This document shows, in pieces, positions 20,521 through 26,837 of a stretch of 64,000 nucleotides of DNA (position 1 is the stretch's first letter; every line of letters starts with the position of its first letter). A model generated the notes under the pieces. It worked only from the letters and a program-made list of their open reading frames with translations. It did no database searches and had not been told where the DNA came from. Location of the stretch: positions 20,663-84,662 of the IMG/VR virus record IMGVR_UViG_3300008954_000029. One strand, given 5' to 3'. Both the position numbers and the translations under genes were made by a program. This DNA comes from a virus.

Positions 20521-20966
20521 CGTAATCCCGTTGACCCAAAGCCGCCGTCCCCTCTTTCAGTCTTCTGGTTCAAACAATCCTCCGTCACCTCTTCGATCTC
20601 GCAGGTGATGATCGGAACTAAAACAGCCTGGGCGACTTTCTGGTTTATCTCGACTCGGCGGCAGGTCGTTCCAATATTGTGCAAATTGACGAACACTTCT
20701 CCGTCATACCCGGCATCGACCACGCATGCACCAACCACAAGCTGCTGCCTAAAGGCAATGCCTGACTTGTTCTTGACCTCTAGCATGTGGTTGTCTGGCA
20801 CCTCCACTTTAATTCCTGTCGGGACTAACCTCGTCTCACCGGGGTGGATGGTGATACCACGATCCGTCTCCTTCCCATCTGGACAGTAAAACAAGTCCAT
20901 CCCCGCATCAGTCGGGTGGGCTCGGTGTGGTAGTCTTGCGTTTTCTCTAATCCTATAAACTCTCAT
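20517..20966 (-). CDS. dut: trimeric dUTPase
   Basis: DAGMDL, KSG, VVDAGYDGE, VAQ, RGDGGFGSTG. Confidence 0.96.
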   Translation of the reverse strand: MRVYRIRENARLPHRAHPTDAGMDLFYCPDGKETDRGITIHPGETRLVPTGIKVEVPDNHMLEVKNKSGIAFRQQLVVGACVVDAGYDGEVFVNLHNIGTTCRRVEINQKVAQAVLVPIITCEIEEVTEDCLNQKTERGDGGFGSTGLR

Positions 20967-21667
20967 TACAATGTTCTCCTATGAAGGTCCAAAAACAAAT
21001 CTTTTTGTTGTGTTTCTACAATCTGCGCAGCAATCTCATTTACTGCGTCCTTTCTTGCCTCGGTCGTTCCTCGGTCAGCATCCCACGGAACGTGAATGGT
21101 GTGTACCCCTTGTCCAGTTAGCACACCAACCATGTGATTAATTTCTCGATCTAACTCTCGCAAGTAATTGATGTCAATAACATTCTCACACTTGCGGCCG
21201 GTCTGCGACTCCATCCTGCGACGGATCCTCTCCGCTGCGACCTCTGGGCTCACCACGAGACGCACACATACGCTAGGTAGCAGGACGCTCGCAGTCATAG
21301 CGTGATAGATACTACGGTAAGTCTCAAACTCATTCTCACTCATCGCACCAGTCTTGACTTGTAGGCGCGCAAACGAGGTATCGCCAAAGTAACTTCGGTC
21401 AAGAACGGCGTGACCTTGTTTGTTCATCGCATACCACTGAGCCTGTAAGTGCATCATATAGCGTGCTTGAAGCAAATGAACTTGCATTGTGAACGCCCAC
21501 CTCTCCTGGTTCTGATAGAAGGAGGCGAGGTAAGGATTAGCATTGTCCTTCTCATCCGGCTCCATCAGGGTGAGGGTGTTTTCGCCAAGAGCCTCACCAA
21601 GTTCCCTCGAAAGAGAACTCTTGCCGGCCCCAATCAAACCTTCTACGATTACTACCTTGTTGTTCAT
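20966..21667 (-). CDS. deoxynucleoside kinase
   Basis: EGLIGAGKS P-loop, EP, FTMQ, DRS. Confidence 0.9.
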   Translation of the reverse strand: MNNKVVIVEGLIGAGKSSLSRELGEALGENTLTLMEPDEKDNANPYLASFYQNQERWAFTMQVHLLQARYMMHLQAQWYAMNKQGHAVLDRSYFGDTSFARLQVKTGAMSENEFETYRSIYHAMTASVLLPSVCVRLVVSPEVAAERIRRRMESQTGRKCENVIDINYLRELDREINHMVGVLTGQGVHTIHVPWDADRGTTEARKDAVNEIAAQIVETQQKDLFLDLHRRTL

Positions 21668-22656
21668 CCCAACATCCTAAATGTGTGTCTAATAGATCGC
21701 GTACTAAATCCCCATTGGTCGCTGTAATCCAGCTTAGCCATGTAGGGGTGGTTCAAAATAATCTTATCTCTCGCCAAATTGGCGTTCCAGCACTTGATAG
21801 TCTCAGCGCTACTCGTTGAATCAATAGTCTTGATAATCAAGAAGTTCTTTCCATTCCTCGTCTTCTTCTGAATCACCTCTCTCGGGATAAACCAGGCAAC
21901 CCCCAAGTTATCGTCCCACTCGCCAAGCGGAGGAACCATGTGTTCTTCCAACTTGCGGAGAATGTGTTCGTCCATCACCAACTCAAAGGGAAAAACCCCA
22001 GTCAAATCAACAAGATACTGGATCTTCTCCTCGTCTGTAAACTCTCCTTCGCTCGCATACTTCTTGATGTTTTCAGTGAGGTTCTTTTCCTTTCTTGGAC
22101 GATCAACCGCTACGGCAGTCCAAAAATGCTTCGCCCCACTAAACCTCTCGTCGATGAGAGAGGACAAGGCGCCTGCTCTCGTCAATGCGTCCAAAGCCTT
22201 CTTATTCAGTTTACTATAAACAATACCCTCATTAAAGATAAATTCTTCAACAGTGTTGAAAGGCCTATTCGCAATGATTTGATCAATTGCGGCATCACCC
22301 AAGCCCTTGATTGAAGTGAGAGGCTGAATGAGCGTCTTGTTGTCGGACGCAATCTCCCAAACTCTTCCTGAGGAATTGACGTCAAGCGGTTGTAGCTCAA
22401 ACCCGTACTTCCGCGCCAAGTTAATGGCCTTCTCCTTCCTTCCCTCAGGCTCCTTATCCAAGAAAGCCGCCATCCATTCAGCAGGATAAGAGTTAAACAA
22501 CCAAGCACACTGGAACGACAGCATTGAATAAGAAATGGCGTGACTATTGCTCGTCAGCATCCCATTCGCCAAGTAAAATTGGTGGTCTTTGTGTGCGACT
22601 TCTAGATCGCAAACATCCATTTCCCCTACTTCTTCAAAGGCAATTATCTTCGCCAT
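21664..22656 (-). CDS. dnaE: DNA polymerase III alpha, C-terminal half, preceded by 37-aa C-intein
   Basis: MAKII...GMLTSN then SHAISYS...YPAEWMAA, IKGLG HhH; own SD GGAG. Confidence 0.93.
   Translation of the reverse strand: MAKIIAFEEVGEMDVCDLEVAHKDHQFYLANGMLTSNSHAISYSMLSFQCAWLFNSYPAEWMAAFLDKEPEGRKEKAINLARKYGFELQPLDVNSSGRVWEIASDNKTLIQPLTSIKGLGDAAIDQIIANRPFNTVEEFIFNEGIVYSKLNKKALDALTRAGALSSLIDERFSGAKHFWTAVAVDRPRKEKNLTENIKKYASEGEFTDEEKIQYLVDLTGVFPFELVMDEHILRKLEEHMVPPLGEWDDNLGVAWFIPREVIQKKTRNGKNFLIIKTIDSTSSAETIKCWNANLARDKIILNHPYMAKLDYSDQWGFSTRSIRHTFRMLG
22546..22656 (-). mobile_element. split intein C-fragment (IntC)
   Basis: block F VCDLEV..DHQF, block G LTSN, +1 Ser. Confidence 0.92.
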
Positions 22657-23641
22657 AACATTCTCCCAATTTGAATACGCCAGTTTGTTTATTATCTACT
22701 ATTTCTCTAATTTTGTCAAGAACTTCCTGCCTAATTCTGCCAGTCGAATTAGCCCAGCACACGTATCCGACTCTTATCAAACACTTGTTTTTACCAACAA
22801 CAATCTGCTCAACAAGTTTATCGCGACTGCGCGTTCTTGCAATGCTTTCTTCAATCCTAATGCTGCCTACTTTTTCTTCTCTTCCCAGGTTCTCAAAATG
22901 GAAGGGTCCATCTACTTCAATGTAGATAAGGCGATCTTTGGAGCGAAAATCAATTTGTTTCCTGTCGCTGTGGCCGGCCTCTTCAAATCGAACGGAGCGC
23001 AACATCTTTCCCCACTCAAAAACACCTGAATACTCTTCTTCCAGCCATTCTAACAAGAACTTTTCCGGCTTTGTCTTCTTCCATTGTTTTGGCGCCGCCA
23101 GCATCCTTTCGGTGCATCGTTTTCGGAATTTCCCAGGGTTCTCCCTCCTCCATTTGGCCAGTTGTTCGGCGCGCTGCTCTTGTATGTCCTTTCTTGCAGA
23201 AGTCTTAATCGCTGTTCGCGATGCTCTCTCCCTAAATCCCTTGGTCTTGTTTAATTCTCCAAGCAAGCGCGCACGGCGCTGGCGCTCTTCCGGAGAAGCC
23301 ATAATGCTTGCGGAAACGGCGCGTCGCTGTCGCCTCTTGTAATTCAGAGAGCACGCCTCAATCCCCAATTCCTTTGCTCTCCGTTTGTTGATTTGGTGAA
23401 GTTTGTTTAAATGACTGTAAAGAGAAGCCGATGCATACTCGCAGTAGGGGCACTTTACAAAATCACCAATCTCCAAGGCTTTCGAGGAACATTTCTCGCA
23501 GTTTCTCCGATGGAGGTGAAAAGAGGCCATTGACGGAGGTTCATAGCCACATACTATACAATCTCTAACTCTCTCTCCAAGATCTCCTTGATCGGCAGCA
23601 TCTGACCGCACTTCGTCCTGAACTTGTGGTCCATCGTGCAT
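22634..23641 (-). CDS. free-standing homing endonuclease (Zn fingers + Vsr/DUF559-like nuclease)
   Basis: CIVC..H..C and CPYC..H..H fingers; TKPE..IDF..IYIEVDGPFH..LIRV; overlaps both intein halves. Confidence 0.85.
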   Translation of the reverse strand: MHDGPQVQDEVRSDAADQGDLGERVRDCIVCGYEPPSMASFHLHRRNCEKCSSKALEIGDFVKCPYCEYASASLYSHLNKLHQINKRRAKELGIEACSLNYKRRQRRAVSASIMASPEERQRRARLLGELNKTKGFRERASRTAIKTSARKDIQEQRAEQLAKWRRENPGKFRKRCTERMLAAPKQWKKTKPEKFLLEWLEEEYSGVFEWGKMLRSVRFEEAGHSDRKQIDFRSKDRLIYIEVDGPFHFENLGREEKVGSIRIEESIARTRSRDKLVEQIVVGKNKCLIRVGYVCWANSTGRIRQEVLDKIREIVDNKQTGVFKLGECYGEDNCL

Positions 23642-26379
23642 CTTACTTTTCTCCCATCATCAAGGGTAAATTCGAAAACCTTTTTCACTCCGTTGTGATG
23701 AACTTGCTCGACCGGAATGAAGATGTCTTCACCGGTGTCTTCGTCTCGGGAGCGGACAATGTCTCCTACTACAACGTCGCCAATTTGCTTATCAGCAACC
23801 TTTCCCTTGTCTTTATTATAAATAGTAACCTTTTCAGAAAAAGACAAACATTTGTTGAAGCCGTAGCCAGAGAAGTATTCAAACAGGTCCCAAATCTGTT
23901 GGGATGTTGCGTAATCAATCTTCTTTTGTTCGCAACCGTCAATGAACTTCTTCTTAATCTTATTCTTTTCCTTCTCCACCTCCGCAACACCCTTCTTGGT
24001 CAGCAACTTGCGAAGTTTGTTGCCCTCGTCCAAAGAAATGTTGCGACCCAACTTGTGGGCCAACTCAGCAATCTGCTCTTGGAAGATCAAGAAGCCAGCA
24101 GTGTCTTTGGTTATGTCCTTAAAGACTTGATGGGGGTATTCAACACTATCAGGGTCGCGACGGGCTTCCACATAACTCTTATCTACGCCCGCACTCAACG
24201 GCCCAGGTCGGTAGATGGAGGTGATAGCAGCCAAATCAACCAAGTTCGTCGGCATTACCCGTTGGCATAGTTTTTGCGCACCACTTTCGGTGAATTGAAA
24301 GATTCCAGCCCAACTTCCATCGTGAAAGATGTTTTCATAGACATCTTGATCGTTAAAGTCAATCACCTCCGGGTGGAGATTCTTATTATAAAACTCACGC
24401 ACATCGTCAAATGTGGGATCTGCGATGCCTTCGTGGCGCTTCAAAATGTGACGGATTGCTCCCTCCATCATACGAAGTGATGCGAGGCCAAGAATGTCAA
24501 ACTTAATAAAGCCCATTGGCTCCAAATGCCTGACGTTTTGACCCTCCGTCCAAGGAGTTTGCCTAACACCCTTGCTGTTAATGAGCGGCATACGGGTATC
24601 AAGATCCTCGCCAATCACCACCCCACCAGCGTGCCTAGAACAAGACCGAATCTGTCCGTAAAGAACATTAATGTGAGTCTTGACTTGCGGATACTTCCTG
24701 AGGAAGTCTTGAAGCGACTTACTATACAACATCACTTCTTCAAAAGTAGGCGTATAGACACCAGCCTTGATGCCGTGTGCCTTCTTGGCCTCCGGTGTTG
24801 CCTCATAGAGCATTCGGCCAGTTACGAAATTGACCTCCGTAAAGGGAATGTCGTAGAACTTTGAAATGTCCTTAATAAGGCTGCGAAGTTGAAGAGTATT
24901 CCAGTTAGAAATGGGAACAACAGTCGTGTCGCCCCACTCCTGAATCAGATCCTCCTTCAAAGACATCGGGTCGCTTACGTCGTAGTCAATATCCGGGTAT
25001 CCCGCACCTTCTTCCGTCAGGAATCGCGAAAATTGAAGCTTATACTTCAAAGGATCAACTTGCGTAATCCCCATGACATACGAAATCAGCGAACCAGCAG
25101 CGCTTCCACGCCCAGCCCCAACAAGTTGGTCCTGAACGGCCCTATCAGCAATCGCCTTCATTGTTAGGAAATACTTGGAGAACCCACGCTTCTGGATTAC
25201 CTTGATTTCGCCCTTCAAGCGATCAACATACTCCTTGTTGTCTTCCAGGCCATTGGCTTTCAGGCCATCAACACAATACTGGACAAGCGCTTGGTCAGCA
25301 CTCACGCCATCCGGCACAACAAAGTCAGGAAGGCGAACCTCCGTGTCGGGGAAGAACGATTCCACCCGATCGTGGGCGATTTGGTGTGTGCGAACAATAG
25401 AATCCATCACCAAGTCATCGTTATAAGAGACATTCAACTCGCTGGCGAACCTCTTGTAGGACTCCCACATAGCATCGCCATTCTTTGGGTAGAGTTCGTA
25501 GTCCATGTCATCAAGAGACGCGGGGAGGTCAATGTCGAGCCACTCGGGCCGACGAGCCTTCCCAATCCAACCAAGCCGACGATAAAGTTCGCGGTCCTTG
25601 AACGTGTCTTGCGACGGGAAATGGCTATCGGCCGTCGAAATGAGATCGACGCCCATTTTTTGACACGTCTTAATGATGTATTGGTTTAGTTCGTGCTGCT
25701 CGGGGATGCGATTCCATTGAATCTCGCCGTACCAACGATCGCCGAAGACCTCCTGCATTTGCTGTGTGGTCTTATACATCGCTTGCATAACGGCATCGGG
25801 GCCGTCGTCGCGATTTCTCCAATAATCTTGAGCGTATACGCCGCCAAGACAGGCACTACTCGCAATGATGCCTTCACCATACTCTTTAAGAAGGCGATAA
25901 TCCATACGCGGATAGCGATAGAAGTTACCTTCCTTGAAACTTTCCGAAACCAACTTAAAAAGATTATTAAGCCCGGTTTGGTTTTGGGCCAAGAGAATCA
26001 AGTGGCTACGACGGCGTAGCAAGTCCTTCTTCTCGCCGCGAGTTTCCTCTTCAACGAAAGTCCCGATCTCCTCGTTACGCTTCTCCTTTAGAGCCTCAAC
26101 CTCCTGCTTCCACTTTGAAATGGAGGGAAGGAAGTAGGCTTCGCAACCGAAGATCGGCTTAAAGTCCTTGCCGTCCTTCTGCATCTTCTTGGCGTGCTGG
26201 GCTTGATAGACTAGCCCGTTGGCGTTTCCGTGGTCCGTGAGTGCCAAAGCATCCTGACCGGTCTCCCAAGCATAATCCATGTGCTCACCGGGATAACCGA
26301 GGCCGTCGAAAATGCTCGCATTCGAGTGGGCATGCAGGCCCACGAACTTGACGTGTGATTTAATTCTCTTCTTGCTCAT
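23554..26379 (-). CDS. dnaE: DNA polymerase III alpha, N-terminal half (PHP + polymerase) ending in 98-aa N-intein
   Basis: LHAHS, TDHG, GRGSAAGS, PDIDYD, RHAGG, KFDILG; ends GYGFNK/CLS... Confidence 0.96.
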   Translation of the reverse strand: MSKKRIKSHVKFVGLHAHSNASIFDGLGYPGEHMDYAWETGQDALALTDHGNANGLVYQAQHAKKMQKDGKDFKPIFGCEAYFLPSISKWKQEVEALKEKRNEEIGTFVEEETRGEKKDLLRRRSHLILLAQNQTGLNNLFKLVSESFKEGNFYRYPRMDYRLLKEYGEGIIASSACLGGVYAQDYWRNRDDGPDAVMQAMYKTTQQMQEVFGDRWYGEIQWNRIPEQHELNQYIIKTCQKMGVDLISTADSHFPSQDTFKDRELYRRLGWIGKARRPEWLDIDLPASLDDMDYELYPKNGDAMWESYKRFASELNVSYNDDLVMDSIVRTHQIAHDRVESFFPDTEVRLPDFVVPDGVSADQALVQYCVDGLKANGLEDNKEYVDRLKGEIKVIQKRGFSKYFLTMKAIADRAVQDQLVGAGRGSAAGSLISYVMGITQVDPLKYKLQFSRFLTEEGAGYPDIDYDVSDPMSLKEDLIQEWGDTTVVPISNWNTLQLRSLIKDISKFYDIPFTEVNFVTGRMLYEATPEAKKAHGIKAGVYTPTFEEVMLYSKSLQDFLRKYPQVKTHINVLYGQIRSCSRHAGGVVIGEDLDTRMPLINSKGVRQTPWTEGQNVRHLEPMGFIKFDILGLASLRMMEGAIRHILKRHEGIADPTFDDVREFYNKNLHPEVIDFNDQDVYENIFHDGSWAGIFQFTESGAQKLCQRVMPTNLVDLAAITSIYRPGPLSAGVDKSYVEARRDPDSVEYPHQVFKDITKDTAGFLIFQEQIAELAHKLGRNISLDEGNKLRKLLTKKGVAEVEKEKNKIKKKFIDGCEQKKIDYATSQQIWDLFEYFSGYGFNKCLSFSEKVTIYNKDKGKVADKQIGDVVVGDIVRSRDEDTGEDIFIPVEQVHHNGVKKVFEFTLDDGRKVRCTMDHKFRTKCGQMLPIKEILERELEIV
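23557..23850 (-). mobile_element. split intein N-fragment (IntN)
   Basis: block A CLSFSE, block B CTMDHKF, ends GQMLPIKEILERELEIV-stop. Confidence 0.93.
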
Positions 26380-26387
26380 TCCAATAC

Positions 26388-26837
26388 TTACCTTTTAAGC
26401 CTTCGCGACTTAGTTACACCTTCGCGACTTAGGATGCGGCTCACCTTGGTAATGCTCCACTTCTCTCCGGGAAACATCGTTTCCATTCTCTCCACGATTT
26501 CACGCAGCTTCCAACCAGAGTTGCGATAATCCACGACGGTTGAAGCCATAAACCACTTATCCCCCTTCGCCAGCTTCCCGTTTTCAACCTTGTAGCCAAA
26601 CGGAGCACCTCCCACCCACTCTCCACGAGCCTGCTTTTGCGCCAAGGCCTGCTTTGTCAATTTCCTGATCGACGGTCCTGAACCTTTGCTATGTACCGCC
26701 CAATGGCAATCTTGACAGAGGGAGACTGTCCTTTTACCTCCTAAGCTTCGGGGCACCACATGATGATCATGCAAGTCATCGCGCGAACCGCACTCAAAGC
26801 ACGATGTGCGCGCATTTGATTTATTCTTCTTCGTCAT
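26388..26837 (-). CDS. HNH endonuclease fused to serine-recombinase-type DNA-binding domain
   Basis: CFEC..HHVVPRSLGG..LCQDCHWAVH; then ARGEWVGGAPFGY..LREI..VSRIL. Confidence 0.75.
   Translation of the reverse strand: MTKKNKSNARTSCFECGSRDDLHDHHVVPRSLGGKRTVSLCQDCHWAVHSKGSGPSIRKLTKQALAQKQARGEWVGGAPFGYKVENGKLAKGDKWFMASTVVDYRNSGWKLREIVERMETMFPGEKWSITKVSRILSREGVTKSRRLKR

Follow-up and report, generated by a model that had tools for sequence, protein, structure and literature searches.

The 64,000-nucleotide (nt) stretch of DNA analysed here, referred to below as the window, spans positions 20,663 to 84,662 of the virus record IMGVR_UViG_3300008954_000029 in IMG/VR, an 84.7-kb record with an estimated completeness of 47 %. 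At its dnaE locus, which encodes the alpha subunit of DNA polymerase III (Pol III), the open reading frame (ORF) listing and Pfam give three genes that all lie on the minus strand and overlap one another. Two encode halves of the polymerase, the first ending in the N-terminal part of an intein (IntN) and the second opening with its C-terminal part (IntC), and the third, lying between them, encodes a putative endonuclease. The dnaE gene of this uncultured marine phage very probably fits the 'fractured gene' concept of Dassa et al. (2009). Its parts are as follows, with lengths in amino acids (aa) and a hyphen within motifs marking, here and below, the point of intein insertion.

23554..26379, minus strand: ORF of the dnaE N-half, 941 aa, consisting of an 843-aa extein and the 98-aa IntN, then TAG
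23851..26379, minus strand: dnaE N-extein, 843 aa, C-terminal end ..FSGYGFNK
23557..23850, minus strand: IntN, 98 aa, CLSF...ERELEIV, with Cys1 and block B T72-x-x-H75
23554-23556, minus strand: TAG stop directly after IntN
22634..23611, minus strand: endonuclease gene, 325 aa, public gene call from GTG (P0024)
22634..23641, minus strand: longest ORF of the endonuclease, 335 aa, from the ATG at 23641
21664..22656, minus strand: ORF of the dnaE C-half, 330 aa, opening with the 37-aa IntC
22546..22656, minus strand: IntC, 37 aa, MAKIIAFEEVGEMDVCDLEVAHKDHQFYLANGMLTSN, ending ..GMLTSN with a penultimate Ser and terminal Asn
21664..22545, minus strand: dnaE C-extein, 293 aa plus stop, with Ser+1 (SHAISY..) and an HHH_6 domain (Pfam)

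The anatomy of the locus can be read directly from these letters. In Pfam, the N-extein carries a PHP domain (PF02811), the DNA_pol3_alpha core (PF07733) and the finger domain (PF17657). Against phrog_405, the N-extein matches positions 37-793 and the C-extein positions 793-1041; the two meet at position 793, and the exteins therefore join without a missing residue. The initial annotation had described an N-half ending ..GYGFNK and followed by a 98-aa IntN and a stop, along with a C-half in which a 37-aa IntC precedes SHAISY, and both are found in the sequence as described; its further proposal, that removal of the intein restores FNK-SHA, agrees with the join in phrog_405 and with the natural intein-less contigs presented below. 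The ends of the endonuclease ORF overlap the 3' end of IntN and the 5' end of IntC. The GTG at 23611 falls inside IntN codons K80-C81 and is preceded by AGGA, both being within the IntN codons for F-R-T-K-C.

Natural alleles with and without the element were found among metagenomic contigs. Logan contigs were aligned to the window at 88 % likeness or above in four runs from two studies, comprising the marine runs X1 and X2 (share 0.98), which are possibly the source, and the estuary runs X4 and X5 of the other study, which match in part. An independent 1368-nt contig (record 4) from X1, a run that may be the window's source sample, follows 22514-23881 with 0 differences and covers both intein-extein junctions as well as the whole endonuclease gene. 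In three of the four runs, namely X1 (depth 2.3), X4 (26.3) and X5 (8.98), joint contigs link 23852 to 22543 via three other letters and read F-N-K-S-H on the coding strand, such that exactly 1305 nt, representing IntN, the endonuclease gene and IntC, are absent, and the Lys and Ser codons at the intein-less joint are synonymously changed. Because the removal is exact, the borders of the element are the predicted splice junctions. Loose contig ends at 23852, present in all four runs, continue K-S-H-A-(V/I)-(S/C)-Y-S. Depth over the endonuclease region is 0-2.9 in X4 and X5 vs 13-31 for the exteins, and both runs contain pieces of the endonuclease gene with 0-1 differences. Relatives with and without the element coexist, and the element is polymorphic; the evidence for the empty site consists of contigs, not reads. 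In the two estuary runs, over 21600-26450 of the window, the intein-less dnaE allele of close relatives is, by contigs, much deeper than the endonuclease-bearing allele.

These contigs also bear on whether the split is real. A metagenome contig belonging to a record that is only about 47 % complete might harbour an assembly artefact or an inactivated pseudogene. However, the 0-difference Logan contig runs across the whole element, spanning both junctions and the endonuclease gene; the same layout recurs in 30 other IMG/VR loci, and all three ORFs of the window are intact. An artefact or pseudogene is thus hardly credible.

The residues of a class-1 split intein are complete, i.e. Cys1, T72-M-D-H75, the terminal Asn and Ser+1, and in an 18-row alignment of relatives the His of block B is invariant and its Thr present in at least 90 % of the rows. 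When IntN was compared with all Protein Data Bank (PDB) chains using phmmer, the best matches were 4lx3, 4qfq, 4kl5 and 2keq (E 6e-15 to 1e-14), which we take to be the Npu DnaE intein, followed by Synechocystis-type chains (1zd7, E 6.5e-8) and then gp41-1 (6qaz, E 5.8e-5). IntC gave the same order, weakly, with the Npu chains at E 0.016-0.05 and gp41-1 at E 0.078. For a residue-level comparison, the last 102 residues of the protein P0168, which match the PDB chain segments, served as the Npu-type IntN reference. The window's IntN is identical to it at 43 of 98 positions (44 %), with 13 of 45 in residues 1-45 and 30 of 53 (57 %) in residues 46-98. The resemblance to the Npu and Ssp DnaE N-halves that the initial annotation had pointed out is therefore real (phmmer against PDB, E 6.4e-15; 43/98 identity). 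P0168 is itself a 483-aa public protein in which the exact Npu-type DnaE IntN is joined to an unrelated beta-helix-like protein, and it resembles an engineered construct that found its way into a sequence collection.

Charge sets the intein apart from the Npu type. As had been counted before, IntN contains 17 K/R and 19 D/E, and IntC 2 K/R (both K) and 7 D/E; the Npu-type IntN contains 9 K/R and 20 D/E. Within residues 1-20 of IntC there are 1 K/R and 6 D/E, and residues 52-98 of IntN hold 10 K/R and 8 D/E, as compared to 6 K/R and 14 D/E in the Npu type. By these residue counts, the interface charge of the intein is reversed relative to the Npu type.

The intein belongs to a viral family of considerable breadth. 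A library-wide IntN search returned 531 cluster representatives at E <=1e-3 and 93 at E <=1e-10. From an input of the 150 listed representatives and 21 further proteins, 159 sequences had a usable match among the matches listed, the window's IntN being included as a row. The insertion site is ..FN(K/x)- in Pol III alpha, the K-S site of the window, in 124 of the 159 and the cyanobacterial ..AEY-C in eight, and the remaining 27 are other sites or fragments. Of the 91 near-full-length K-S-site sequences, 42 have Cys at position 1 of the intein, 38 have Ser, 10 have Thr and one has Leu. Thr1 is unusual among class-1 inteins. Members with Ser1 or Thr1 have Ser+1 throughout, and they appear from their sequences to be natural split inteins without catalytic cysteines. 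Fourteen of the 91 extend more than 100 residues past IntN, most of them straight into IntC; P0082 instead continues in frame from IntN into a member of the window's endonuclease family, and P0108 into a GIY-YIG-like domain, as recognized by eye. P0082 and P0108 possibly represent a stage between free-standing and in-frame endonucleases.

The layout of the family was surveyed in IMG/VR, where a search with the IntN alignment gave 64 loci, 53 of which were full-length or nearly so; together with L002 these make 54 loci (L002-L055). Forty-eight were analysed once L006 (same contig as L002), the contiguous L031 and L054, and L004, L009 and L016 (no IntC at the locus) had been set aside. Thirty of the 48 have the window's endonuclease family (A1) between the intein halves, and in two of these it is split into two ORFs. 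Nine others have an IntN-IntC gap of just 38-272 nt without an ORF, one has a gap of 434 nt with a 139-aa ORF, three have a different single ORF between the halves (that of L043 matches Pfam Vsr weakly, at E 7.8e-4, below the cut-off), three have gaps of 3.5-4.7 kb containing several genes, and in the last two IntN extends until it overlaps IntC. Contiguous inteins also occur in nature, as in P0004 (where IntN meets IntC in ..LEIV-MAKIIAF..), L031 and L054. In L003 the endonuclease is gone and the last ~90 nt of its gene are kept, including promoter-like hexamers and a Shine-Dalgarno sequence; the endonuclease was therefore lost there and not originally absent. The states kept in the family comprise an empty site, a contiguous mini-intein, a split intein with endonuclease, an in-frame IntN-endonuclease fusion, an endonuclease remnant only, and halves that lie 2 to 11 kb apart. 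The largest of these distances was seen in record G001 (L004, L119), the window's nearest IMG/VR relative, in which unrelated genes separate IntN and its endonuclease from the IntC-bearing C-half, found ~11 kb further downstream on that strand, making this an uncoupled split phage dnaE. Enlarged gaps run over 6409-11087 in L024/L027 and 6424-9953 in L038, and the genes in the L024 gap encode a TnpB-like protein (Cas12f1-like TNB domain, E 1.5e-19), a DNA methylase and a Tad-like protein.

Conservation across the family concerns, above all, IntC, which is much better conserved than IntN. When the near-duplicates L027, L037, L053 and L055 were also dropped, IntC ended in SN-SH in 44 of 44 related loci, the relatives being 36-76 % divergent. 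Its net charge over these loci ranges from -8 to +2, and an acidic IntC is a trait of the family. These data bear on the idea that the intein is dead, with halves that no longer splice and just clasp the two polymerase chains together non-covalently. Against it stand Cys1, T-x-x-H, the terminal Asn and Ser+1, all of which are present, and the retention of SN-SH in every one of the 44 loci despite such divergence; moreover, where the intein at this site is naturally contiguous, the polymerase can function only if splicing takes place. A purely structural role is consequently judged very unlikely.

The restriction to uncultured viruses is marked. A megablast of the locus against cultured phages gave zero matches, and within 50,697 cultured-phage records none of the 69 that match IntN covers 80 % of it and the endonuclease is without any match. 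Among 185,579 GTDB species genomes, there were three full-length matches to a narrow IntN pattern, all on contigs of metagenome-assembled genomes. Many relatives (P0004, P0006, P0007, P0010, P0011, P0014, P0096 and P0136 being involved) start with the IntC of another split intein, further split-intein sites being GRG-S or a position before CIFQEQ/CYQEQ; those phage DnaE genes are therefore in at least three pieces. P0009 and P0206 have an additional large endonuclease-bearing intein upstream.

Thirty-five proteins, i.e. P0024 and 34 homologues, resemble the endonuclease of the window at E <=1e-3; most are 323-325 aa long, and one homologue bears the Joint Genome Institute name 'very-short-patch-repair endonuclease'. 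Across a 24-member alignment D221, E232, D234, H238 and D264 are invariant, and the last four fit the composite EDxHD motif. The protein opens with a C2H2 zinc finger of the Ros/MucR-like kind, and its nuclease domain, with motifs at 221-283, comes after it. Pfam ROS_MUCR was matched by eight of the 24 members (best E 2.4e-6), and the family profile compared with PDB reached the Ros zinc finger 2jsp (E 0.0027); its matches there were zinc-finger chains only, Vsr and 3r3p not being reached, and phmmer of the endonuclease itself against PDB gave nothing. The grounds for naming the protein an EDxHD-type homing endonuclease are therefore its motif and its genomic context, not its fold, and the middle gene is read as a putative free-standing enzyme of that type. 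As to context, in 36 of the 42 IMG/VR loci that encode an endonuclease relative the flanking gene is DnaE carrying this IntN and/or IntC, and in the other six the match is weak and confined to the nuclease part; the endonuclease lineage is tied to this DnaE intein site. Taylor et al. (2011; PMC3239194) defined the composite EDxHD motif, and the family that goes with it, from the Vsr-like endonucleases that fractured genes contain. In the window's protein, as in I-Bth0305I of that family, a DNA-binding part lies at the N-terminus and a nuclease part at the C-terminus; the DNA-binding part of the window's protein is a Ros/MucR-like C2H2 zinc finger, not a NUMOD. A 149-aa HNH endonuclease gene (26388-26837, minus strand; Pfam HNH E 1.9e-4, HNH_5 E 6.6e-5) sits immediately upstream of dnaE and may be a second mobile nuclease at the locus.

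Two further features lie in front of the C-half:

22661..22667, minus strand: Shine-Dalgarno-like GGGAGAA, separated by 4 nt from the C-half ATG that follows, as read from the letters themselves
22691..22719, minus strand: promoter-like TTGACA-17-GATAAT (11/12), located within the endonuclease gene at its 3' end

The first accords with the earlier view that the C-half has a Shine-Dalgarno sequence of its own. The -10 hexamer of the second ends 34 nt before the C-half ATG, and the site overlaps the endonuclease codons for LDK and VDN. Promoter-like sites show no excess in the region (7 vs 5.2 +/- 2.1 in shuffles). L005 has the TTGACA and GATAAT hexamers in the corresponding position, as does what is left of the endonuclease gene in L003 (6400-6590); distant loci have not kept them. 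A promoter-like score of at least 9 upstream of IntC was obtained for 10/29 endonuclease-bearing loci vs 128/1160 background windows, a modest difference.

The resemblance to cyanobacterial DnaE inteins raises the issue of descent. The window and the cyanobacterial systems (Npu, Ssp) share the host protein, the motif and the split point of the intein, with 98+37 residues in the former and 102+36 in the latter, and neither has a penultimate His. They differ in several respects. The N-extein of the window extends four residues (GFNK) beyond the end of the Nostoc DnaE N-exteins, ..KFAEY, with which FSGY aligns, and the site is K-S, not Y-C, which upholds the initial statement that the site lies four residues downstream. 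The cyanobacterial C-extein presumably starts CFNK. As also stated initially, the residue at +1 is Ser, with IntC lacking the penultimate His (..TSN-S); the cyanobacterial +1 residue is Cys. Finally, the two dnaE halves in the window are neighbours on either side of an endonuclease gene, the interface charge is opposite, and the host is a phage.

Intein phylogeny, which had been suggested at the outset, was run on 98 columns with an arbitrary root and with outgroups limited to sequences similar enough to the query. Nine fragments (P0074, P0075, P0094, P0114, P0144, P0146, P0155, P0157 and P0177) were removed beforehand, and P0168 and P0170 were relabelled cyanobacterial-type. With FastTree and 150 IntN sequences (124 K-S, 10 Y-C and 16 other), the Y-C sequences fall into a single clade (0.987), next to which 123 K-S sequences and one other make up a second, support for the node uniting the two being 0.68. 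With IQ-TREE in fast mode and 72 sequences, including a random 45 K-S sequences with <=6 gaps, approximate likelihood-ratio test (aLRT) values were 92.9 for the Y-C clade, 94.3 for the K-S clade (two 'other' sequences inside) and 83.9 for both together. The window's IntN groups with P0003, P0004, P0005 and P0059, outside the cyanobacterial clade. The cyanobacterial inteins are thereby placed in a sister clade with moderate support; on these alignments, the cyanobacterial and the phage K-S inteins are probably each other's closest sampled relatives, as sister groups, a relation that carries no direction of transfer. An IMG/VR search for P0195, a 138-aa fragment with the Y-C site, found no close relative (best 34 %, partial), and no viral example of the cyanobacterial site was therefore obtained.

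The best PDB matches being Npu/Ssp-type DnaE inteins, and IntN residues 46-98 being 57 % identical to the Npu type, one might suppose that the cyanobacterial DnaE split intein itself was recently transferred into the phage. However, the position of the site four residues downstream, the Ser in place of Cys at +1 and the adjacency of the halves do not fit such a transfer, and IntN identity overall is just 44 %. The clade of cyanobacterial-site sequences (0.987; aLRT 92.9) stands beside the phage clade and not inside it, and the phage family, at 124 cluster representatives, is far more diverse. Recent transfer is accordingly regarded as highly improbable. An older connection can be put forward tentatively, as a scenario more doubtful than probable: the K-S and Y-C inteins would both come from one already-split DnaE intein, and cyanobacterial dnaE would have begun as a phage-type fractured gene whose site shifted by four codons and whose endonuclease was lost. 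The states seen in the window's family would then cover each stage of that route.

Taken together, the locus is in all likelihood a fractured phage dnaE in which a class-1 mini-intein was split by a homing-endonuclease gene. The mini-intein occupies the position between Lys and Ser of the conserved GFNK-SHA motif in the polymerase fingers, and a gene for a Vsr-like/EDxHD free-standing endonuclease would have split it at the usual point of endonuclease insertion. The splicing chemistry and the activity and target of the endonuclease would then be as follows. The N-half (843-aa extein and 98-aa IntN) and the C-half (37-aa IntC and 293-aa extein) would be produced separately, whereupon the acidic IntC would pair with the slightly basic C-terminal half of IntN. 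Cys1, Thr72/His75, Asn37 and Ser+1 would perform trans-splicing to yield a Pol III alpha of 1136 aa with an FNK-SHA junction. The endonuclease would cut element-less alleles, and the element would in this way stay mobile.

Several observations weigh against this reading. The sequencing runs listed for the stretch included no RNA run. The Pfam Intein_splicing model scored below its cut-off (16.8 and 19.6 bits vs 35.8) when the halves were scored singly, and the short side of the joint contigs that mark the empty site measures just 30-32 letters. Where the Vsr-like nature of the endonuclease is concerned, domain matches are weak, with DUF559 in 7/24 members (best E 0.0052) and RAP in 3/24 (best E 1.1e-6), and the Pfam Vsr and DUF559 models miss the window's own record (E up to 10). 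The hhalign comparison of the endonuclease family with Escherichia coli Vsr was not significant (probability 0.09 %, E 0.59), and its placement of D221 opposite D51 and D264 opposite D97 is for that reason not counted. Lastly, the hairpin is absent at the endonuclease start, the fold of 23560-23680 (minus strand) giving a z score of -0.06 vs shuffles.

Precedents for a fractured dnaE exist. Among the 26-27 fractured loci that Dassa, London, Stoddard, Schueler-Furman and Pietrokovski (2009; PMC2677866) reported from ocean metagenomes are three fractured DnaE loci (DnaE-1, -2 and -3) with split inteins at non-cyanobacterial sites, none of them being one of the five complete loci. The endonuclease of the DnaE-2 locus is Vsr-like, and the model of its nuclease domain covers residues 196-315, a span that fits the motifs of the window's protein at 221-283. 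Like those loci, the window has a phage-like dnaE, a split intein at a non-cyanobacterial site and a free-standing endonuclease between the halves, and it is likely to be one of the Dassa DnaE loci; unlike 15/16 of the loci in that paper, which have hairpins upstream of their endonuclease start codons, it has none there. The remark of the initial annotation that the layout was already known hence holds. Within 75 finger residues of DnaE lie the insertion points a-d and g, 'a' being the cyanobacterial point (Novikova et al., 2016; PMC4760082).

The split intein gp41-1 (PDB 6qaz) is a further relative by layout, being a fractured-gene split intein from a phage-like source, with far weaker similarity to the window (IntN E 5.8e-5, IntC E 0.078) and another host protein; it presumably has Cys1 and Ser+1.

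In the model of Dassa et al. (2009), an endonuclease gene invades the intein, the endonuclease is then lost, and the halves become uncoupled, as in cyanobacteria. The initial annotation offered the window as a model for the origin of the cyanobacterial split dnaE; the idea is not new, having already been proposed in that paper. No description of the K-S-site family or of its sister relation to cyanobacterial inteins was found in the literature, and the supplement of Dassa et al. may contain this very allele. The layout has been known since 2009 and is common, and the locus, apparently a complete and functional example of that published kind, brings no new principle. What is new here is the size of the family and its range of states, the tie of an endonuclease lineage to the site and the natural empty-site allele.

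For annotation, the locus is to be taken as two genes for one phage replicative polymerase. Its family is large and almost wholly uncultured, and of the relatives sampled it stands closest to the natural split inteins in widest use. Its members are candidate orthogonal split inteins, some of them predicted to be without catalytic cysteines. Present-day presence/absence polymorphism in the sea makes the element a good natural system for the evolution of inteins, homing endonucleases and gene fission. If the common-origin reading is true, the model of Dassa et al. would be directly testable, and there would be dozens of natural split inteins with Ser/Thr at position 1, Ser+1 and an interface charge opposite to that of Npu.

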